Virus record (IMG/VR): IMGVR_UViG_2571042690_000020
Source of the DNA: a virus
Lineage: Duplodnaviria; Heunggongvirae; Uroviricota; Caudoviricetes
Reading direction: 5' to 3' (one strand)
DNA: 22,905 bases
A model generated the notes under the pieces. The model did not search any database. It was not told where the DNA came from and saw only the letters and a list, made by a program, of their open reading frames with translations. Position 1 is the first letter of the stretch; the number at the start of each line of letters is the position of its first letter. A program made the translations under genes and the position numbers. This document shows positions 689 through 22,905 of this stretch, one piece after another.

Positions 689-2167
689 TTACCAGTCCCG
701 GGACAGTCGAAACTTACAGCTCAGTCTGCCACCCCGTGTCAGCAGGGAGACTGCGTCATCCACCGGGCGCGTCAGGGACCAGGCTTTATTGCTCTGCTTG
801 GTGATCTTAAATACACCCTCTGACAACTGAATTCCGCCATTCTTAATGCTCCAGCCCTGCGCAGCAGCATCTCCGGCTGTCGGCAACAGGGAGATTGTGC
901 GTACGGATGCATCTTCAGACGGCCCCGATGGCGTGTCGCCGCCGGGCGAGGGTTTGATTTCCGGTGCCTTACCACTGATGAAGGCTAAGGTGCGACCGGC
1001 TACGTTCAGAATAGCGGTTGCCATACGATCGGGAATAATGCCACGACGCGCCCATGAGCTGAAATGCGTCTGGCGATTTGATGATACCCAGTTTTTGTTC
1101 GTTCGGGATGCCGAACCGTAATATCCCTCACTTGCAGCATCCGGATCTTCCGTTGGTGCGTTGGTGGAGGTATTGTTGCCACTACCATCGGTCAGGAACG
1201 GCACAAAGAAAACGTTGTCGCTCTCCCTGTTTTTGTACGCCCCGTAAATGGTGTCGTACTGCGTGCCGTAGGTGTTTTTCCAGTAATACGTCGTGTCACC
1301 ACAAATCCATGGCACACTTGCCGCTCTGCCTCCATGACACTGCGTGTTAAACTCGGTAATGTCCGCACGAAACTGTTTCAGCATGGCCGTAAACAGCGGA
1401 GGTTGCTGTGAGTACGTAGCGGCGCTCATGTCAAATTCGCCCTGCATCCAGCATACGGCCAGCAGCATGTTTTTTGGGTTTTTCTGCAATGCGGCCTTCG
1501 TGCGCAAAATCAGGTCCTGATATAAAGGTTTACCCACACCCCAGCGAGCCGAATCCTGACTGGCTCCTGTGGACTCGCTGAATGTCCCCTCCGCGCCCTG
1601 GGTGAATGCCGAACCACCACGACAGCATGGAACCAGTAAAATCCCGGCATTCTGTGGAATGTAAGGCAACAGGCGTTTGGCAATATGCAAGCCCTGTCCG
1701 ACACAGCCATACTGCCCTTTGCTCAGGTCTGCATTCGGGTGATTCAGTGCGCTCATATCCTGAACATCATGCAGGCAGTGGTCTGCCGGAATGATGTCGT
1801 TAAATGCGCATGCTTTACCACCGGGAGTCACTGTGTTGCGACGGGCCAGTTGCTTAATGCGTGGGTGGGGCGCATCGTAAGAATCCGGCAGCGGCATTCC
1901 CTCACCATATGACATGGCATTGGATTGACCAGCAAGTACCACCACGTAATACCACTCCGGCACGCTGCCGTGCTGGGGGGAATCAGGTGAGATGTCTGTA
2001 GTGCCATCGGCCACCATTGCCTGCATTAGATACCACGGGGTGCCGGGTTCGTAGGCAACCCGCGTCTCCCCCTGAAGATGCCACCCTTTCGCAAGATGTT
2101 CATTCACCTTTTGAGTCAGTTCAGCCTGTGTCATGGCTGTAATCAGTGCAAAGTTCTTACTGGTCAT
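689..2167 (-). CDS. NanS-p-like sialate O-acetylesterase (SGNH/SASA hydrolase with DUF1737-like N-terminus)
   Basis: 492-aa ORF. GQSNAMSYGEG is the GQSN block of SGNH/sialate 9-O-acetylesterase family proteins. The N-terminal ~50 aa (MTSKNFALITAMTQAELTQKVNEHLAKGWHLQG...) resembles the DUF1737 domain found on prophage NanS-p esterases. Its ATG overlaps the o-spanin stop (ATGA at 2164-2167). Confidence 0.65.
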   Translation of the reverse strand: MTSKNFALITAMTQAELTQKVNEHLAKGWHLQGETRVAYEPGTPWYLMQAMVADGTTDISPDSPQHGSVPEWYYVVVLAGQSNAMSYGEGMPLPDSYDAPHPRIKQLARRNTVTPGGKACAFNDIIPADHCLHDVQDMSALNHPNADLSKGQYGCVGQGLHIAKRLLPYIPQNAGILLVPCCRGGSAFTQGAEGTFSESTGASQDSARWGVGKPLYQDLILRTKAALQKNPKNMLLAVCWMQGEFDMSAATYSQQPPLFTAMLKQFRADITEFNTQCHGGRAASVPWICGDTTYYWKNTYGTQYDTIYGAYKNRESDNVFFVPFLTDGSGNNTSTNAPTEDPDAASEGYYGSASRTNKNWVSSNRQTHFSSWARRGIIPDRMATAILNVAGRTLAFISGKAPEIKPSPGGDTPSGPSEDASVRTISLLPTAGDAAAQGWSIKNGGIQLSEGVFKITKQSNKAWSLTRPVDDAVSLLTRGGRLSCKFRLSRDW

Positions 2168-11181: not shown

Positions 11182-11679
11182 ATGAACCCAATAACACTAC
11201 AAATCATCAGCAATGCTATTGTTCTGCTTGGCGTTTTGGTTGCCATTGGAACCATTATCTACAATGTGCGTACCGCAAAAAAAACTCAAACGGCCAACTT
11301 TCTTTTTGAGAGTCGGCAAGATATGCAATATATAGAGTCATTGCATACCCTGAAACAAGTGCATCGTTCAGGCAAATCATTTCGTTCTTATGTTTTTCCT
11401 TGTGATGGTTGCATAATAACAGATGAAGAAATGGCCGAGCGTCGAAAATTTCAATATATTTTAAATTTTTACGAGCGAGTTGCTGTAAGTATTCGTGAAG
11501 GTATTTATGATGAAAAAATGATAAAAAGAACATCTTACACAACAGTTGTAGAGACATATGATATTGCCGAGCCATTAATTAAAGCAATCAGAGAAAGCAT
11601 TAATTCGGATACTACATATCAAGAATTCGAATGGTTAGTAAGAAGATGGAAAGCTAATCCTTTACGGAAAAACAAATAA
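11182..11679 (+). CDS. Hypothetical membrane-anchored protein (N-terminal TM helix, ~140-aa soluble domain)
   Basis: 165-aa ORF. Residues 5-27 are hydrophobic (TLQIISNAIVLLGVLVAIGTIIY). Markedly AT-rich coding sequence compared with the flanking phage genes. Confidence 0.6.
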   Translation: MNPITLQIISNAIVLLGVLVAIGTIIYNVRTAKKTQTANFLFESRQDMQYIESLHTLKQVHRSGKSFRSYVFPCDGCIITDEEMAERRKFQYILNFYERVAVSIREGIYDEKMIKRTSYTTVVETYDIAEPLIKAIRESINSDTTYQEFEWLVRRWKANPLRKNK

Positions 11680-11718
11680 TGTTTTACCCTTTAATTTACA
11701 AGTAACACAGGGGGAAGT

Positions 11719-12561
11719 GTGACACAGAATCCGTTTTCATTTTATGACTTTTTGGGCTATCTAATTCCAGGTGGGTTATTCCTGTTTATCCTTTTTTTGT
11801 TTTCTATTGAAATTAACCCTGTTTATATAGAAGGTATTCTTAACCATATCCTGAAATATAAAGAAATAATAAGTGTATTTATATATGTGGTATTAATCGT
11901 TCTATCATATATTTCAGGTCACTTCATATCTATTCTATCATCCTGTTTAATTGAAAAATACATGAACAGTAAACTTGGGTATCCTTCAATTTATCTGTTT
12001 TCTAAAAGAAGCTCCCTGAAAATAAAACGACATAATACTAAGTTCAGTATAGTTAATTTTATTCGTGGAGTTTTTTTATTTCCTGTATCAGCTTTTGATA
12101 AAGCAGAACATCATAAAACCACACTGCATTCTATACTTATTAAAGTCTTTTGGCCGCAAATACGAGATGGTTATATAAATGTTTTTTCTGTATCTACGCT
12201 ATATCGACGTAAGGGCTTGAGGGGCGATCTTTTTCGCCTTGCTTATCATTATGTGTATGAACATTCTAAAAATCATCAGGTGAAAATGCAAAACTATGTT
12301 GCTTTGTATGGTTTTTGTAGAAACATTACATTTGTTTTTCTCGCTTCAGTCTGGTTGCTTATGTTCCTGCTCCTTCTATCCTTTTTAATAGATATAAATA
12401 TCAGACTGTTACCTTTTTGTTTTCTTCTCTTGTTTTGTATTGCTGCATCCCGAGTATTTTATTATGGTTTTGTTAAGTATTATCGCCGCTATTCTCTTGA
12501 GGTTTTAATGGCATTTGCGGTACTTCAGCACGATAAAAAAACTTCGGCAATTTCATCATGA
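11719..12561 (+). CDS. Hypothetical polytopic inner-membrane protein (4-5 predicted TM segments)
   Basis: 280-aa ORF with a GTG start and AGGGGGA RBS, 39 nt after the preceding gene. Several long hydrophobic segments (FLGYLIPGGLFLFILFLF, IISVFIYVVLIVLSYISGHFISIL, ITFVFLASVWLLMFLLLLSFLI, LLPFCFLLLFCIAASRVFYYGF). Very AT-rich. Confidence 0.6.
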   Translation: MTQNPFSFYDFLGYLIPGGLFLFILFLFSIEINPVYIEGILNHILKYKEIISVFIYVVLIVLSYISGHFISILSSCLIEKYMNSKLGYPSIYLFSKRSSLKIKRHNTKFSIVNFIRGVFLFPVSAFDKAEHHKTTLHSILIKVFWPQIRDGYINVFSVSTLYRRKGLRGDLFRLAYHYVYEHSKNHQVKMQNYVALYGFCRNITFVFLASVWLLMFLLLLSFLIDINIRLLPFCFLLLFCIAASRVFYYGFVKYYRRYSLEVLMAFAVLQHDKKTSAISS

Positions 12562-12644: not shown

Positions 12645-12959
12645 TTATTCTGGGAATAAGGTCTGAATATTCTTTTTTATTTTATAAAAATTGCATTCAA
12701 CTCCGCTAGGCTGATTATCCTGGTATGTTTCCTTGATGCTAACGGTATTGAAGGGGAGGTTGTCCTCTGGCCATTCGGCCATCCAGTAGGCAAATGCTGG
12801 GTTGCGCTTTATGAGCGCTAGCCCAGCCAGAAAGGCCGCGCGTTGCGCGCGGCTGCGTTCGGAGGCTGGCAGGCTATCGAGGTAATTGCACGCCTCCTGT
12901 TCACTCTTGACGGCGGCGGGCTTCAGATAGAAACTTATCCGTCTGGTTGGTGTCGTCAT
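12645..12959 (-). CDS. parR: ParR-like centromere-binding protein (ribbon-helix-helix adaptor)
   Basis: Internal ATG at 12959 with an AAGGAG RBS, 5 nt after the parM stop. The N-terminus (RISFYLKPAAVKSEQEACNYLDSLPASERSRAQRAAFLAGLAL) resembles plasmid R1 ParR as I recall it. Confidence 0.6.
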   Translation of the reverse strand: MTTPTRRISFYLKPAAVKSEQEACNYLDSLPASERSRAQRAAFLAGLALIKRNPAFAYWMAEWPEDNLPFNTVSIKETYQDNQPSGVECNFYKIKKNIQTLFPE

Positions 12960-12963
12960 TGGT

Positions 12964-13923
12964 TTACTCCTTGTCCATTGCGTACAGCCCATTAACCAGA
13001 GCAAACTGTGGCACCCCGTCCGCGATGAAAGTCGCATTAACTCCGCAGACTTCGCGGATAGCGGGTGCCACAATCTCCGCCCCTCCACCGACAACCATCA
13101 CCCGCCCGTAACCCGAAAAAACCGCCAGCGCGCGGATCACGCGTTGTTTCAGTGTTTCTTCCTTTTCACGAATAACCGCCATCAGGCTGGCGTAATGCGC
13201 GTCATTGTGGATGTGCTGGCGCAGCCAGGCTTCATCATGGCGATGTTCGATAATGGTATTGGCGATGTGGTGACTGGTGCGCATACCGTTAGTGGCCATC
13301 ACCGACAGTACGGCATCGGCCATCAGGGAAACGCCTACGTGTGGATCGCAAAACACCTGGCTGATACCTGCCAGTTGCCCTTGAACCTTTGCCACATCCA
13401 GCGTGGTTCCGCCTAAATCCACAATCAGCAGGGATTCAAACGGACTCATGTCAGCCAGTGCTTTAAAGCCAGCCGGAATGGATTCAGGCATAACCCGCAC
13501 GTTACGGATAGTGAATGCTTCGCCGTTCTGGTATTCCACCGGGCGCATAACGTTCGCTTTTTTGCGGTTGATGTTGGCCATGTCCGGCTGTGCGTTTGTG
13601 TCGAAATACTCGCTCAGTGGCAGGGTGACAACCACATCCACCTCCTGTGGCGTGATGCCTGATTTGACCAGCGCGTGATGAATGGCGATTACATTCACAT
13701 CGCTGTACTGGTATTGCGTGTCGGTCGTCTGGACAAAGCGATCGCTAACCGGATCAAAACCATAGCGCACGCCATCAAGCATGTAGTTCGCGGGCTGCAT
13801 GCCACCGAACGGCGCAGACCATTCCGACTTGAAGCTGTTCGGGCTGATGGCGTTGCGGCGTTCGCCATTCTCAGTCCATGCCAGCTTGATGTTGGTGGAG
13901 CCGTCGTCGATACAAATTTTCAT
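12964..13923 (-). CDS. parM: ParM/StbA-family actin-like segregation ATPase
   Basis: 319 aa. The N-terminus (MKICIDDGSTNIKLAW...ISPNSFKSEW...YSDVNVIAIHHAL...VDVVVTLPL) tracks my recollection of plasmid R1 ParM closely, including the phosphate-binding DDGSTN block. Confidence 0.8.
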   Translation of the reverse strand: MKICIDDGSTNIKLAWTENGERRNAISPNSFKSEWSAPFGGMQPANYMLDGVRYGFDPVSDRFVQTTDTQYQYSDVNVIAIHHALVKSGITPQEVDVVVTLPLSEYFDTNAQPDMANINRKKANVMRPVEYQNGEAFTIRNVRVMPESIPAGFKALADMSPFESLLIVDLGGTTLDVAKVQGQLAGISQVFCDPHVGVSLMADAVLSVMATNGMRTSHHIANTIIEHRHDEAWLRQHIHNDAHYASLMAVIREKEETLKQRVIRALAVFSGYGRVMVVGGGAEIVAPAIREVCGVNATFIADGVPQFALVNGLYAMDKE

Positions 13924-13952
13924 GTCGCTTTTCCTTATGTTGATTAATTAAT

Positions 13953-13993
13953 CGTTTACGGGATTCTGAAATCCCGTTTTTGCCTGTTTTGTG
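13953..13993. repeat. Copy 1 of ~41-bp element with internal dyad (ACGGGATTCTGAAATCCCGT)
   Basis: Lies in the A-parM intergenic region, directly upstream of the parM start. About 85% identical to copy 2. Confidence 0.5.
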
Positions 13994-13999
13994 CGCGCT

Positions 14000-16822
14000 T
14001 CATATATCGCTGCGCGTTTTTTGCTCATTTACGGGATTCGTAAGTCCCGTTTCTGTCTGTTTTTTGTTTCCACTGGTCAGGCCACCCCGCAGCAGGTCTG
14101 CTTTGCGGCTGGCGCGTTCAGTGGTTTCACTGATTCTCTGTGCGTGCTCTGCGTCGCGGATGGCGCGCAGCATGTCAGAAAGCACGGTAACGGGTGTTTT
14201 CATGGTGTTCTGGCCCTGCTGAAGTGTGGATGCCAGGCGTGCGGCGGCTTCAGGGTCTGATGCCCCCAGCTGTGCCAGATAGCTGGCGACCGGGTTATGG
14301 CGGATCTCCGTGCTGCTTACGCCATGATTACGGCTCAGGCGCTGCCAGAGCTGCGTGATTCGGCTGTCCGGGCGGGTATCCGGTTTGCGTACAATTTCAA
14401 ATCCCTGCGGTGCAATGATGCTGCCGTCAACGTACAGACTGCCGCCCCGTAACAGGTGCTGCATCTGTTGTTCACCGATATGCAGGCCGAGAGATTCAGC
14501 AGACTCCCGCCATTCTTTAGCGAGTAATTCGTGGTTATCAGGCAAAGGCCGCTGCTGTTTGCGGCTCTGTGTCCAGCTCTGCATTTCATCGCTGCTGTTT
14601 TTTGCCTGTTTGTCACGAAGCGAACGCATCAGCGCCCGGCGTTCGTGTCGTTTCAGTGAGCGCATCCATTCGTTCACTTCAACGCCGTCAGGGAGCTGCG
14701 GCCACGGTGCTGGCCGTTCTTCCGGCTGTTCTGTCCCGTTGTTGTCCGTTTCCTGTACACGGGGACAGTTATTGCCACGAGTCCAAGGGGCGGCAGGGCC
14801 GCCCTGAAGGTCAAAACCATTTTCGCGGGCGCTGTCTTCCGCTTCCGGTTTACGTCTTACCAGCTTCCAGTTATCCGGATGCGTGCACACACGGGAGGAT
14901 TCCCCGATGAGTGGTGACCAGATCCCGTAAATCTGTACGCTCTGTTCGCCGTAATCGTTCAGCTCATCTGCGAGGTCGTAGGCGGTGCGAATCAGGTAGT
15001 CCTTGCGTGGAACAAGCACGCCACCCTGTTTTTCAATGTAGGTGGCAAAACACCCGGCATCGGCGGCAGCGAGTACCGCATCCATTGCATCATCTTTCAG
15101 CCGTTGCGGGCCTTCCGGATTGCGTGCCATCTGGCTGGCAAGGCGGCGCAGTTCACGCCACACCTGACGGGAGGGGATGCCAAAGAACTGGAACTGACGG
15201 ACCCGGTGAAGGCGCGCCCAGCCGATGGCGCGCTCCACGCTCTCGGCCATTGATTTTCCGGTTTCGTGGTCCACGCGTGGCTTGCCCGTTTTCGGGTCGA
15301 TGCCATCCACGGCGCGGCTGTCCAGGTTCTTTCCGATGTAGGTGGCGATGTAGCTGGTTGGCGTGCCTTTTGAGCCGTCGACATACTCCACCTTAAAGCG
15401 CGGAGTAATATCATTGCCCAGCTCGTGGCGGTCTTCCTGAATGGCAATATCGCGGGTATGGGACACAATGGTGTCGATTTCTTCCGGATGTGCAAAGACC
15501 ATCATATGCCAGTGCACGGTGCCGTCATGATGAGGCTCCACCGTGCGGATGCCATACCAGCGCAGGCCGTCGCGGTTCAGTTTTTTGCGGACCGCCGCAA
15601 AAAACGTGTTAACCAGGTAATCGCTGGAGTCGCGCATTGTGGCCCCGTTCCATTTGGGATTCGGATGACCGTTCTCCGTTGTGGCGTGGTATTTTGACGG
15701 GCAGGTGACAGTCAGAAACACCGCTTTGTCGCCACGGGCTTCGGCCAGAAGTTCCAGTCCCTTCATGGTGGCCATCATTTCTGCCTTACGGTGAACCGGG
15801 TTACTTACTCCCGCGTAATACACTGTCTCGAGATCAATCGTGAACCCGTCTTCATTTTCCAGCATGAAACTTTTCAGGAAATCGCGTGTTTTCTCGCGCT
15901 GTGCGCGAAACTCGCTTAACGCGTCCTGGCTCAGATAGGGTGATGTTTTTCTGGAAACCAGACAGGCGGCGCGGAGTTGTTCTTCTCTCCACTCGCAACG
16001 TAACAGCCACAGTTTGCGTTTCCACCATTCCGCACAGGTCAGGCGAAGGATTGCGCCCGGCAGCAGCTCCGTGTCCGGTTCGTTCCTCCGGTCTTTGTCT
16101 GTTGTCAGTGCGTCATAATGTGGAGGCATGGCGTGCAGGTGTAACGCCATGCGGGCCAGCATCTGATACGCCTTCAGGGTTACATCCATGGTCAGCTCGC
16201 CATCGGTCGCGCCAAAGCCATCGCAGAGTTTTTCGAAGGTGCTGCTGAACATCGCCGCCGTCATGGTGGCCAGCGTCTGTATCTGGTGTTTGTTGAGCTG
16301 CGGCAGGTAAAGCAAATCGTCCAGGCGTTCGCGTCCGGCAAGGGAGCGATAACCCGGTGTCAGCCAGCGTCCGTCAGTGCTATCCAGACGTTCGAATATT
16401 TTGCGCAGGGTTCCGCGTGCATAGCGTTCCGCCTGCCAGCTCTTTTTGCCTTTCCGGCGATCGGCTTCCTGTTTTTTGCGCAGGAAGGAGAGGTGGCGAA
16501 TAAGCGGATCGCGCAGATAGGACGGCAGCAGGCGCAGCGAGGCCATGGCTTCATCCACCGCGCCACGTGCCTGTTTTCTGGCGTCTCCTGCCAGTGTGAT
16601 GGTTTTGTCCTGTTTTTCCTGTGCGTCCAGGCTTTTATTAATCAGGTTGCCCAGCGGCGTGGCTGAGAACGCCGCATCAGCCATTTCCTGGCGGCGCTCG
16701 TTCTCTGCCCGGTAGGCATCCAGCCAGGAGGAAAGCGCGGATTCAGGAGCGGGGATCCCCGTTCCTTCACGCCCCACTGCGTGGCGCGGTTGTTGCCAGT
16801 CCCTGAGGTACTCTGCCGTCAT
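14000..16822 (-). CDS. A: Replication initiation endonuclease (P2 gpA-like HUH rolling-circle protein)
   Basis: 940-aa ORF with an HUH-type metal motif (TVHWHMMVFAH) and a YIATYIGKN catalytic-tyrosine block, downstream of the early operon as in P2/186. Confidence 0.85.
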   Translation of the reverse strand: MTAEYLRDWQQPRHAVGREGTGIPAPESALSSWLDAYRAENERRQEMADAAFSATPLGNLINKSLDAQEKQDKTITLAGDARKQARGAVDEAMASLRLLPSYLRDPLIRHLSFLRKKQEADRRKGKKSWQAERYARGTLRKIFERLDSTDGRWLTPGYRSLAGRERLDDLLYLPQLNKHQIQTLATMTAAMFSSTFEKLCDGFGATDGELTMDVTLKAYQMLARMALHLHAMPPHYDALTTDKDRRNEPDTELLPGAILRLTCAEWWKRKLWLLRCEWREEQLRAACLVSRKTSPYLSQDALSEFRAQREKTRDFLKSFMLENEDGFTIDLETVYYAGVSNPVHRKAEMMATMKGLELLAEARGDKAVFLTVTCPSKYHATTENGHPNPKWNGATMRDSSDYLVNTFFAAVRKKLNRDGLRWYGIRTVEPHHDGTVHWHMMVFAHPEEIDTIVSHTRDIAIQEDRHELGNDITPRFKVEYVDGSKGTPTSYIATYIGKNLDSRAVDGIDPKTGKPRVDHETGKSMAESVERAIGWARLHRVRQFQFFGIPSRQVWRELRRLASQMARNPEGPQRLKDDAMDAVLAAADAGCFATYIEKQGGVLVPRKDYLIRTAYDLADELNDYGEQSVQIYGIWSPLIGESSRVCTHPDNWKLVRRKPEAEDSARENGFDLQGGPAAPWTRGNNCPRVQETDNNGTEQPEERPAPWPQLPDGVEVNEWMRSLKRHERRALMRSLRDKQAKNSSDEMQSWTQSRKQQRPLPDNHELLAKEWRESAESLGLHIGEQQMQHLLRGGSLYVDGSIIAPQGFEIVRKPDTRPDSRITQLWQRLSRNHGVSSTEIRHNPVASYLAQLGASDPEAAARLASTLQQGQNTMKTPVTVLSDMLRAIRDAEHAQRISETTERASRKADLLRGGLTSGNKKQTETGLTNPVNEQKTRSDI
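14027..14066. repeat. Copy 2 of ~41-bp element, inside the 3' end of gene A
   Basis: CATTTACGGGATTCGTAAGTCCCGTTTCTGTCTGTTTTTTG, overlapping the last ~22 codons of A. Confidence 0.5.
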
Positions 16823-20875: not shown

Positions 20876-21397
20876 TTAGTTGCCTCTGTTGTTTCTGAGT
20901 TGGTCCAGTTTTGAGCTTCTGCCTGTATAAACTCGCTTACCGTTAATGGTCTGGCAGTCTTCTTTATTAGCTGGAGAGAACTTCCTTTTCTGGCGGTCAT
21001 ACGTCCAGTAACTTTTCCAGTTGTGCCATTCTGGGGGCTCGTGCTCTGGTAGCTCATCAGCCAACTTGTCCCACTCTTTGGCGTTAAACCACCATACTCC
21101 GTCTGAGTTTTCATCTTCCGGGTTTGTGCGCGTCTTGTGTCCCGGCATTTGACCGCGATGAATGGCTACGCGCAGTGCAGATTTTGTTAGCCCAATATAT
21201 GCCGCGCCTTTTTCCAGAGAGCAAAGCCCGGCGATCGGACCATCCAGCCGCAAAGTCGCTCCTTTTTTGTAGGAACGCTTTTTCTTGTTTTCTTCGTGCT
21301 CGTCGTCGTTGGCGGCATCAATGGATCCGCTGAGTGCGTCACTTTCCTGAAGTGGTTGGTGGTCAGATAACTCTTTATCGGCAATGAAGTCCCGCAT
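20876..21397 (-). CDS. Cox/Apl-like DNA-binding regulator with extended termini
   Basis: 173-aa ORF, first gene of the early operon, divergent from the repressor. AAGAGGA RBS. HTH-like segment LTKSALRVAIHRGQMPG. Confidence 0.5.
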   Translation of the reverse strand: MRDFIADKELSDHQPLQESDALSGSIDAANDDEHEENKKKRSYKKGATLRLDGPIAGLCSLEKGAAYIGLTKSALRVAIHRGQMPGHKTRTNPEDENSDGVWWFNAKEWDKLADELPEHEPPEWHNWKSYWTYDRQKRKFSPANKEDCQTINGKRVYTGRSSKLDQLRNNRGN

Positions 21398-21501: not shown

Positions 21502-21843
21502 ATGGTTATCTTGTCAATAGACTACGCAAAAAAGTTACGTCAGATACGTAAGGCGGAAGGGTTAACACAAAAGCAGTTTGCGGATATTACTGGGTTGTCT
21601 TTGGCAACCATAAGGAATTACGAATCGGGGCAAAAGAACGCTAGAGCAAAAATCGTTGAGGCGGTTCTGCAAGTCGATCGCTTTGAAAAATACATGCTGT
21701 GGCTAATAAAAGATAAGACGCTACCTGTCGCCGGGCAGATTGCTCCGGCTCTCTCTCTTGATGGATCTATTCAGTCGGAGGGCGATCAGGTTTCAATCGG
21801 TATTACCCAAAAATCACCCCGATCAGGCCGCAATGTTGGCTGA
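21502..21843 (+). CDS. C: Immunity repressor, P2 C-like (XRE-type HTH)
   Basis: HTH block (LTQKQFADITGLSLATIRNYESGQ) and a GQIAPAL motif shared with P2 C as I recall it. Start set at ATG 21502; the ORF-track start at 21448 is a TTG that would span the operator. Confidence 0.7.
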   Translation: MVILSIDYAKKLRQIRKAEGLTQKQFADITGLSLATIRNYESGQKNARAKIVEAVLQVDRFEKYMLWLIKDKTLPVAGQIAPALSLDGSIQSEGDQVSIGITQKSPRSGRNVG

Positions 21844-21912: not shown

Positions 21913-22905
21913 ATGTCGATTAAGCAACTCAAAGACGGACGTTATCAGGTCGATGTCAGACCGCAGGGGGCGGAAGGAAAGCGGATTCGAAAAATCTTTG
22001 CCCTGAAATCAAAGGCTCAGGAGTTTGAGAAGTATGTGTTACAGAACTTTCATGACAAGCCATGGCAGGCTAAGCCAGCTGATCAGCGGCGATTATCAGA
22101 GCTGCTTGATGCGTGGTGGATGCTTGATGGGCGTAATCAGGCTTACGGGGATAGCTACAGGGTTAGGCTAGGGAAGGTTGTTCGTGAAATGGGAGATCCT
22201 CGCGCCAGTCAGATGACGCGAAAATTTATGCTTGAATATCGGTCAGAGAAATTACAGGCCGGATTAATGCCGTCCAGTATTAATCGTGACTTATGCGTAC
22301 TGTCTACCATGTTCACGGTGCTGATTGAAGCTGAGGTCTTTCACAACGCGAACCCTGTACGCGGTATACGAAAACTGAAAGTTCAGAACACAGAGATGGC
22401 CTTTCTTTCTGATGATGAGATTGAACGGCTTCTTGAGCGACTGGAGGGTGATGTGCGTCGTGTTGCCATTCTGTGTCTTTCTACTGGTGCCCGATGGAGT
22501 GAAGCATCGGAACTACGTGGAGAGCATATCGTTGGCAACCGGGTGACGTTCTTTAACACCAAAAACGGAAAATCCCGTTCGGTTCCTGTGGCGGATTCGG
22601 TCGTGCCTCTGATTAAAACCCGTCGAACGGGGTTATTGTATCAGGTTGATTATCTGAAGTTCCGGGAGATTCTTCAGGAGGTGAAACCGGATTTGCCGAA
22701 GGGGCAGGCTACGCATGTCATGCGTCATACATTTGCCACACACTTTATGATGAATGGCGGAAATATTGTTACGTTGCAACGAATCCTGGGGCACGCAACG
22801 ATTCAGCAAACAATGACGTACGCTCATTTTTCGCCGGACTTTTTACTGGACGCGATCAACTTTAATCCGCTGGCTGAAAGTGTCCATAAACTGTCCATCG
22901 ATTAG
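21913..22905 (+). CDS. int: Tyrosine recombinase/integrase (P2-type)
   Basis: 330 aa from ATG 21913 with a GAGGGG RBS. C-terminal catalytic region with HxxR...Y context (HVMRHTFATHF...TMTYAH), immediately downstream of the repressor as in P2. Confidence 0.85.
   Translation: MSIKQLKDGRYQVDVRPQGAEGKRIRKIFALKSKAQEFEKYVLQNFHDKPWQAKPADQRRLSELLDAWWMLDGRNQAYGDSYRVRLGKVVREMGDPRASQMTRKFMLEYRSEKLQAGLMPSSINRDLCVLSTMFTVLIEAEVFHNANPVRGIRKLKVQNTEMAFLSDDEIERLLERLEGDVRRVAILCLSTGARWSEASELRGEHIVGNRVTFFNTKNGKSRSVPVADSVVPLIKTRRTGLLYQVDYLKFREILQEVKPDLPKGQATHVMRHTFATHFMMNGGNIVTLQRILGHATIQQTMTYAHFSPDFLLDAINFNPLAESVHKLSID

Follow-up and report, generated by a model that had tools for sequence, protein, structure and literature searches.

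Why should a P2-like phage that integrates into the chromosome of its host carry a partition cassette of the kind known from low-copy plasmids such as R1? The question is raised by a stretch of viral DNA of 22,905 nucleotides (IMG/VR record IMGVR_UViG_2571042690_000020; the whole stretch is called the window below), for which a preliminary description had reported an actin-type ATPase gene and a coupled adaptor gene downstream of replication gene A, repeats close to them, and an integrase and a repressor in the same element. A dual lifestyle, a remnant of a phage-plasmid ancestor and a co-opted function had been offered as explanations.

The partition pair and its prophage

Analysis of the window upheld the coupled pair downstream of gene A, both genes revealing domains and alignments of the R1 type, as well as the P2-like prophage with its repressor, Cox, and integrase. 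Portal and terminase genes also lie within the window. The features are as follows.

12645..12959, minus strand: parR, ribbon-helix-helix-type adaptor of 104 aa (Pfam Plasmid_stab_B, PHROG 2515)
12964..13923, minus strand: parM, actin-fold partition ATPase of 319 aa (Pfam StbA_N, ParM C-terminal domain, alignment with R1 ParM)
14000..16822, minus strand: replication gene A, rolling-circle initiator (Pfam Phage_GPA, 4.9e-131)
20876..21397: Cox
21502..21843: HTH repressor
21913..22905: integrase

The translated parM gene matches Pfam StbA_N (2.7e-82) and the ParM C-terminal domain (1.1e-68) and aligns over its full length with the R1 ParM structures (1mwk and others) at about 50% identity (E 1e-92), which speaks against its being a member of a different actin-fold family. 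The motifs DDGSTNIK (phosphate-1), MPESIPAG, DLGGTTLD (phosphate-2), and GGGAE (adenosine) are all retained in comparison with R1. For ParR, matches were obtained with Pfam Plasmid_stab_B (1.9e-28) and with PHROG 2515, “partition protein” (3e-54), together with a weak match of the pB171 ParR structure (2jd3) over the N-terminal domain. The parR reading frame 12645..13094 of the program-made list is over-extended; the true start is the ATG at 12959, which is preceded by the Shine-Dalgarno sequence AAGGAG, is the start annotated in RefSeq, and lies 4 nt behind the parM stop. ParR begins with an RRISFYLKP strand region and ends with the tail KKNIQTLFPE. This N-terminus and a C-terminal N-x3-(L/F)FP tail with an invariant Asn are common to the ParRs of plasmids, of phage D6, and of other prophages in our alignment; the conclusions on ParR rest on the retrieved plasmid and phage ParRs and not on the R1 ParR sequence that was also included. 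In R1, the C-terminal tail of ParR is the ParM-binding region. Judged by these domains, motifs, and alignments, parM and parR are confirmed as a bona fide R1-type (type II) partition pair. RefSeq and PHROGs already name both partition genes correctly.

The order of repeats, parM, and parR is the same as in R1 ParMRC and R100 StbAB, with a ParM likeness of 50% over the full length, all nucleotide-binding motifs in common, a shared N-terminal strand-helix region and C-terminal tail motif of ParR, and repeats likewise arranged in two blocks upstream of parM. In contrast, R1 and R100 are theta-replicating low-copy plasmids while the module described here resides in an integrating rolling-circle phage; their centromere consists of arrays of 11-bp direct iterons whereas the prophage candidate consists of two 20-bp palindromes. 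Moreover, the prophage ParRs, with 103-104 aa, are the shortest in the alignment, and the prophage ParMs form a clade separate from the plasmid ParMs.

Prophages of E. coli ST131 strains and induced phage records match the region at 100% identity, phage P88 and other members of Xuanwuvirus (Peduoviridae) at 96-98%. In ST131 strain JJ1887 the prophage was found to be chromosomal, with the integrase adjoining dmsA. The parM start follows the gene A stop after 76 bp, and a terminator scan of the minus strand gave no sense-strand terminator between the two genes. Neither the promoter scan nor inspection by eye revealed a convincing sigma-70 promoter for parMR, and an internal sigma-70 promoter between the repeats, as known from R1 parC, was rejected on the same two grounds. 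The sequence around the gene A stop differs among phages. The annotation lists a single replication protein, the rolling-circle gpA, and no initiator of the plasmid type.

A candidate centromere upstream of parM

The repeats that had been noticed upstream proved to be two direct repeats of 42 nt (13952-13993 and 14025-14066), 73 bp apart, each enclosing a palindrome.

13924..13951, minus strand: conserved leader TTAATTAATCAACATAAGGAAAAGCGAC with the parM ribosome-binding site, near-invariant in 56 upstream variants
13958..13977, no strand assigned: proximal palindrome ACGGGATT-N4-AATCCCGT, 20 bp, parC-like candidate, within repeat 13952-13993
14031..14050, no strand assigned: distal palindrome ACGGGACT-N4-AATCCCGT, 20 bp, within repeat 14025-14066, overlapping the last gene A codons

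The position of both palindromes is nearly constant: the proximal one lies at -54 from the parM ATG in 55 of the 56 distinct upstream variants and at -53 in the other, and the distal one at -127 in 52 of 55 variants. Across the 56 variants the arms of both are conserved while the 4-nt centres vary freely, a pattern expected of sites for a dimeric protein. The palindromes also score as terminator-like on the plus strand, and a third, central palindrome displayed one compensatory change with a G.U intermediate. Reading the palindromes as RNA hairpins was nevertheless rejected: the non-Watson-Crick changes in the 56 variants are of the antisense type distally and of the sense type proximally, and because no single strand is favoured, protein-binding sites are the preferred interpretation. 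The two palindromes are candidates for a parC-like centromere and operator, to which ParR is predicted to bind. Additional ParR may or may not bind to the A-tract-rich sequences that flank them within the 42-nt repeats.

A similar arrangement is found outside E. coli. GGG-N10-CCC pairs lie at -125/-52 in the window, at -131/-59 in a Plesiomonas prophage, and at -128/-55 in a Hafnia prophage, with spacings of 73, 72, and 73 bp, respectively. The Plesiomonas and Hafnia prophages also share the ATTAATCAA...AAGG core of the leader in front of parM. In the Hafnia prophage an extra ORF separates gene A from parM, and the distal site lies inside this different ORF at the same distance to parM; therefore, the sites travel with parM and not with gene A. 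Even an IncF plasmid relative carries iteron blocks upstream of its parM with a spacing of, again, 73 bp. The Serratia/Enterobacter lineage has a different inverted-repeat layout, and its ParR N-terminus (NRKISFYLKP) differs as well.

Descent and conservation of the cassette

Among 5426 complete E. coli genomes, parM was detected in 1303 (24%), with up to three places per genome and all copies at least 90% identical; 1441 places are chromosomal and two are on plasmids (1443 in total). P88-type gene A, counted at a coverage of at least 80%, is present in 1322 of these genomes as compared to 1279 genomes with near-full copies of parM, and about 97% of the genomes with P88-type gene A also carry parM. 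P88-type gene A is present in 14 records of the phage collection, and exactly these carry parMR (14/14), while the other P2-like phages, with about 63% identity over the gene A core, are devoid of it. Because P88-type gene A and parMR co-occur in phage records and genomes alike, the cassette is a lineage trait, a fixed gene block and not shuffled cargo. The statement that type II partition is foreign to integrative P2-like phages was, accordingly, too strong, given this prevalence, the fixation in Xuanwuvirus, and the fact that the module has been published (PMC9122126). Indeed, Rousset et al. (2022) mention a “putative plasmid partitioning system” as one of many systems in the gpA-gpQ hotspot of E. 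coli P2-like prophages, occurring in about a quarter of P2-like phages (PMC9122126). It is the same module at the same locus, though their share refers to P2-like loci and our 24% to complete E. coli genomes; in our data the module is, in addition, tied to one gpA lineage, located at a fixed edge of the hotspot, and almost always chromosomal.

The closest ParMs outside E. coli (54-62% identity) were found in Plesiomonas, Hafnia, Serratia, and Enterobacter, in all cases in P2-like prophages with integrase, repressor, and Cox, where parM and the Plasmid_stab_B gene behind it are situated between gene A and the portal gene. The search of related prophages that had been proposed, thus, recovered the order gpA-parM-parR in all four genera. 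In a neighbour-joining tree of 106 ParMs, calculated without bootstrap support, the ParMs of P2-like prophages form one clade of 14 leaves from five genera, with those of IncF plasmids, ICEs, integrated plasmids, and phage D6 falling outside, and plasmid ParMs reach at most 53% identity to the prophage ParM. The Apirhabdus “plasmid” L123 encodes a ParM with 62% identity, its parM being split into two ORFs. Since the gpA association spans genera, the ParM clade is separate, and plasmid ParMs are at most 53% identical, the sequences point to a single old capture by a P2-like sublineage with subsequent co-descent with the phage, and against a recent pick-up or a decaying relic.

That the cassette is a decaying leftover from a phage-plasmid ancestor and no longer functions might be suspected because the phage integrates, so that a partition system seems redundant, and because a small number of alleles are truncated: large clusters include parM fragments of 188-261 aa, and parR is short in two of 83 further loci from IMG/VR and GTDB genomes (full length in the other 81). 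In those same 83 loci, however, parM is without exception an intact ORF of 319 codons, and in seven P88-like phages its dN/dS amounts to 0.02-0.11 (0.1-0.37 for parR), showing strong purifying selection on parM. Together with non-coding sites that are conserved at a protein divergence of 54-62%, a gpA association that holds over five genera, and the separate ParM clade, this contradicts the remnant proposed in the preliminary description and makes loss of function extremely improbable.

The ParR alleles fall into at least four classes, in which the linker is hypervariable and both ends are kept: the N-terminal sequence hardly varies (MTTPTRRISFYLKP in almost every allele), and the tail NI(Q/R)xxFP at the C-terminus is conserved. 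In comparison with P88-type sequences, the window is near-identical through parM and the first ~18 codons of parR and diverges abruptly thereafter, resulting in 99% identity for ParM and 52% for ParR.

12645..12905, minus strand: recombinant part of parR (codons ~19-104), abrupt divergence from P88-type sequences

Behind parR, each phage examined has different genes, and the sequence comparison places the boundary of the variable gpA-gpQ cargo region inside parR.

This location at the edge of the hotspot, where P2 carries old and tin and other phages carry many defence systems (PMC9122126), the variable cargo next to parR, and the divergent ParR alleles would all fit a factor expressed by the lysogen that disturbs how related phages or plasmids, on entering the cell, are partitioned or replicated. 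Such a competitive role is, nevertheless, very unlikely. The parts that would set its specificity are not diversified, given the near-invariant N-terminal strand of ParR and the conserved palindrome arms, although the linker varies; identity to plasmid ParMs is only about 50%, and the plasmids have other centromere repeats; neither ParM nor ParR is matched by any PADLOC model; and the module is lineage-fixed and not swapped as defence cargo is. On the grounds of the missing PADLOC match and of its presence in all P88-type phage records and nearly all genomes with this type of gene A, an identity as anti-phage defence cargo was rejected.

The module is frequent in successful clones such as ST131, and the partition gene ORF35 of PhiSM has been tabulated as a possible fitness factor (PMC6456863). 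Both could indicate a host-directed function, in which the prophage-expressed pair improves the segregation of the host chromosome or of resident plasmids. We consider this highly improbable, as the candidate centromere lies inside the phage itself and the module has evolved together with the replication gene of the phage across genera and not with the hosts.

A proposed role on circular phage DNA

In the genomes, the prophage state is overwhelmingly integrated. The attP junction is split in 442 E. coli genomes and intact in one place in none, and the plasmid records with the module measure 227 kb to 1.4 Mb and are, therefore, not phage-sized, apart from NZ_CP148288.1 and a partial match in a Shigella record of 26.8 kb. 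NZ_CP148288.1 (PLSDB) is a complete circular P88-like genome of 34,461 bp that includes the integrase and was deposited as a plasmid; a phage 99.9% identical to it is chromosomal in another strain of the same project. This circle may be a true episome or a replicating induced phage. As for the properties used to recognise a phage-plasmid, extrachromosomal maintenance was not observed, this circular record being the one exception, and instead of a plasmid-type initiator and independence from integration the element has gpA and an integrase.

A facultative plasmid or carrier state, in which the phage, by means of the cassette, would be maintained as an episome of low copy number instead of integrating or after excision, is the reading closest to what is in print, since plasmid maintenance was suggested by Rousset et al. 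(2022) (PMC9122126). It would account for the completeness of the plasmid-type partition system and for the candidate centromere, and the circular record and its integrated counterpart would place both states on record. There is also a precedent in D6, a P1-like phage-plasmid whose prophage, a plasmid of 91 kb, has a lifestyle that requires partition: its StbA/StbB pair, with a ParM of 48% identity and a StbB-type ParR, is the only other homologous one in a phage record of the collection, and its annotators remarked on the similarity to P88 StbA, yet its ParM falls outside the P2-like prophage clade. We regard the episomal reading as rather unlikely. All but two of the parM places are chromosomal, no E. 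coli genome record holds an unsplit attP junction, the other plasmid records are, save the partial Shigella match, far from the size of the phage, gpA is the only annotated initiator, and a circular contig can equally be a replicating induced phage. Furthermore, the up to three parM places per genome, if they are separate prophages sharing the ParR N-terminus and the sites, would be incompatible with each other as plasmids. The dual lifestyle considered in the preliminary description, thus, keeps the single circular record of 34.5 kb in its favour, with chromosomal places and split junctions weighing against it. Its boldest form, that P88-like phages represent a new type of facultative phage-plasmid, combining a rolling-circle gpA replicon and an integrase with a low-copy episome stabilised by a two-palindrome ParMRC, the 34.5-kb circle being one such lysogen, is quite doubtful.

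The best reading, in our view, is that the cassette is neither a relic nor an instrument of routine plasmid lysogeny. By analogy, it may be a functional ParMRC for circular phage DNA that is replicating after excision or infection, a role to which we assign a probability of about one half and which agrees best with the third explanation of the preliminary description, a co-opted function, here placed on excised phage DNA. ParR dimers would bind the two palindromic sites 73 bp apart just upstream of parM, the C-terminal tails of ParR would capture the ends of ParM filaments, and polymerisation of ParM would push the DNA copies apart. The pair would be expressed with the early replication operon, by co-transcription with gene A, and its substrate would be the circular phage DNA present after infection or excision, the replicating monomeric circles being separated or positioned; long-term maintenance of a plasmid prophage would not be its task. 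We infer early-operon expression and action on circular phage DNA because neither a terminator nor a promoter was found after gene A and because the phage is integrated in nearly every genome; given that no convincing sigma-70 promoter was recognised, the timing of parMR expression is a guess. Replication of P2 yields monomeric circles, which are the packaging substrate, and such circles are an obvious substrate for a plasmid-style segregation machine.

The best functional analogue is AlpAC of the integrated prophage CGP3 of Corynebacterium glutamicum. There, AlpC and AlpA, an actin-like ATPase and a co-transcribed DNA-binding adaptor, are combined with alpS; AlpAC, which is induced early, binds sites that precede its own operon and acts on the excised circular phage DNA (PMC4446434, PMC5539076). 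It is also needed for efficient replication after induction (PMC4446434). What AlpACS and the prophage ParMR have in common is an architectural resemblance only, namely an actin-like protein with an adaptor, residence in an integrated prophage, and upstream sites, which in our case are candidates. AlpC belongs to a different actin-like family and to a Gram-positive host, and the function of the CGP3 system is experimental whereas that of ParMR is inferred.

Some observations count against a replicative role. Two palindromes make a far smaller centromere than the ten iterons of R1, the repeat layout differs in Serratia/Enterobacter, and both the circular record of 34,461 bp and the published suggestion of plasmid maintenance (PMC9122126) point elsewhere. 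Most P2-like phages replicate well without ParMR, so its benefit may be small or conditional.

In the literature searched, no paper was found that examines the function of ParM in P88, Xuanwuvirus, or P2-like phages, only a one-sentence remark (PMC9122126) and a table entry (PMC6456863). Thus, the presence of the module and the hypothesis of plasmid maintenance were already known, while the fixation in the lineage, the measures of selection, the separate clade of ParMs, the mosaic structure of ParR, and the conservation of the two-palindrome site are new. The cassette is carried by a prophage of about a quarter of complete E. coli genomes, including those of pandemic ST131. If it does organise replicating phage DNA, it would be a Gram-negative and genetically tractable counterpart of CGP3 AlpAC, and integrating phages would be using plasmid cytoskeletal motors in lytic growth. 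Should support of an episome prove true instead, P2-like phages would be reclassified as facultative phage-plasmids, affecting prophage detection and our view of gene flow. In either case, the two-palindrome site offers a compact candidate centromere for studying the assembly of ParR and ParM.

Breakpoint within parR and the adjoining cargo

Comparison of the window with the P88-type phages revealed a sharp recombination breakpoint at position 12905, corresponding to about codon 18 of parR. Upstream of this point in the reading direction of parR, the sequences are near-identical, whereas downstream of it the ParR proteins share only 52% identity. At least four allele classes of ParR were distinguished, all of them having both protein ends in common but carrying hypervariable linkers. 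Directly beyond parR, in the variable gpA-gpQ hotspot, lies the following cargo:

11182-12561, plus strand: gene for a DUF4760 protein, followed by a gene for a multi-pass membrane protein

The DUF4760 protein comprises 165 aa (Pfam, 1.8e-34), and the membrane protein, with a length of 280 aa, gave a weak Csx27-like match in PADLOC (1.1e-05). Together, the two genes could represent a defence or exclusion cargo accompanying the parR allele of the window type.

Variation upstream of parM

Besides the two palindromes 73 bp apart that form the candidate centromere, the region upstream of parM harbours a further one:

about 13994-14024: third, central palindrome CGCGC-N12-GCGCG, flanking the stop codon of gene A on both sides

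In phage 520873, this palindrome occurs in the compensatory form CGTGC...GCACG, and phage P88_4B11 displays an intermediate that is changed on one side. Around the gene A stop, the centre GCGATATATGA is replaced by ATAAAACATGA in some phages. In the region equivalent to window positions 13980-14050, exactly one 73-bp repeat unit is missing in a single one of the 83 IMG/VR or GTDB loci (upstream variant u25, found among L016-L098); the loss leaves one palindrome and a shortened C-terminus of gene A, making this locus a natural one-site variant. As a separate observation, both parM and gene A are broken into several short CDSs in phage 503458 (NC_049341.1) and in this record only, which looks like the outcome of sequencing frameshifts and not of real decay.

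Further prophage genes and the JJ1887 copy

Between the lysis and tail genes, the window carries another gene:

689-2167, minus strand: 492-aa protein combining DUF1737 with a SASA domain (carbohydrate/sialate acetylesterase)

This gene looks like a surface-sugar-modifying moron. For its counterpart in JJ1887, the annotation gives a longer protein with DUF6645; the window may differ from JJ1887 at this gene, since transferred coordinates run into stop codons. To the left of the JJ1887 tail-fibre genes (L001, positions 1-1800), the tail-fibre region borders on a copy of IS1A and on a truncated fragment from a tail-fibre N-terminus; this prophage copy may therefore be disrupted or rearranged.

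Circular and integrated carriers

NZ_CP148288.1 is a complete circular P88-like phage genome of 34,461 bp carrying an integrase, hok/gef and a Com/methyltransferase pair; its E. coli host was isolated from a cat, and the record was submitted as a plasmid. Isolate Z1323HEC0067, of human origin, has a chromosomal copy with 99.9% identity to it. A 226-kb contig from an assembly labelled as the Firmicute Vagococcus sp. WN89Y (NZ_JBQPOM010000071.1) also codes for a ParM, which shares 97% identity with that of the E. coli prophage; this probably reflects contamination or a mislabelled assembly. More distant ParM/ParR pairs, with 49-50% identity, reside in two chromosomes: that of a Dickeya, where the carrier is a conjugative element that has integrated (TraG/TraU, integrase), and that of a Mangrovibacter, where it is an F-like plasmid segment, likewise integrated. 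Phages are thus not the only integrated elements to carry type II partition genes.
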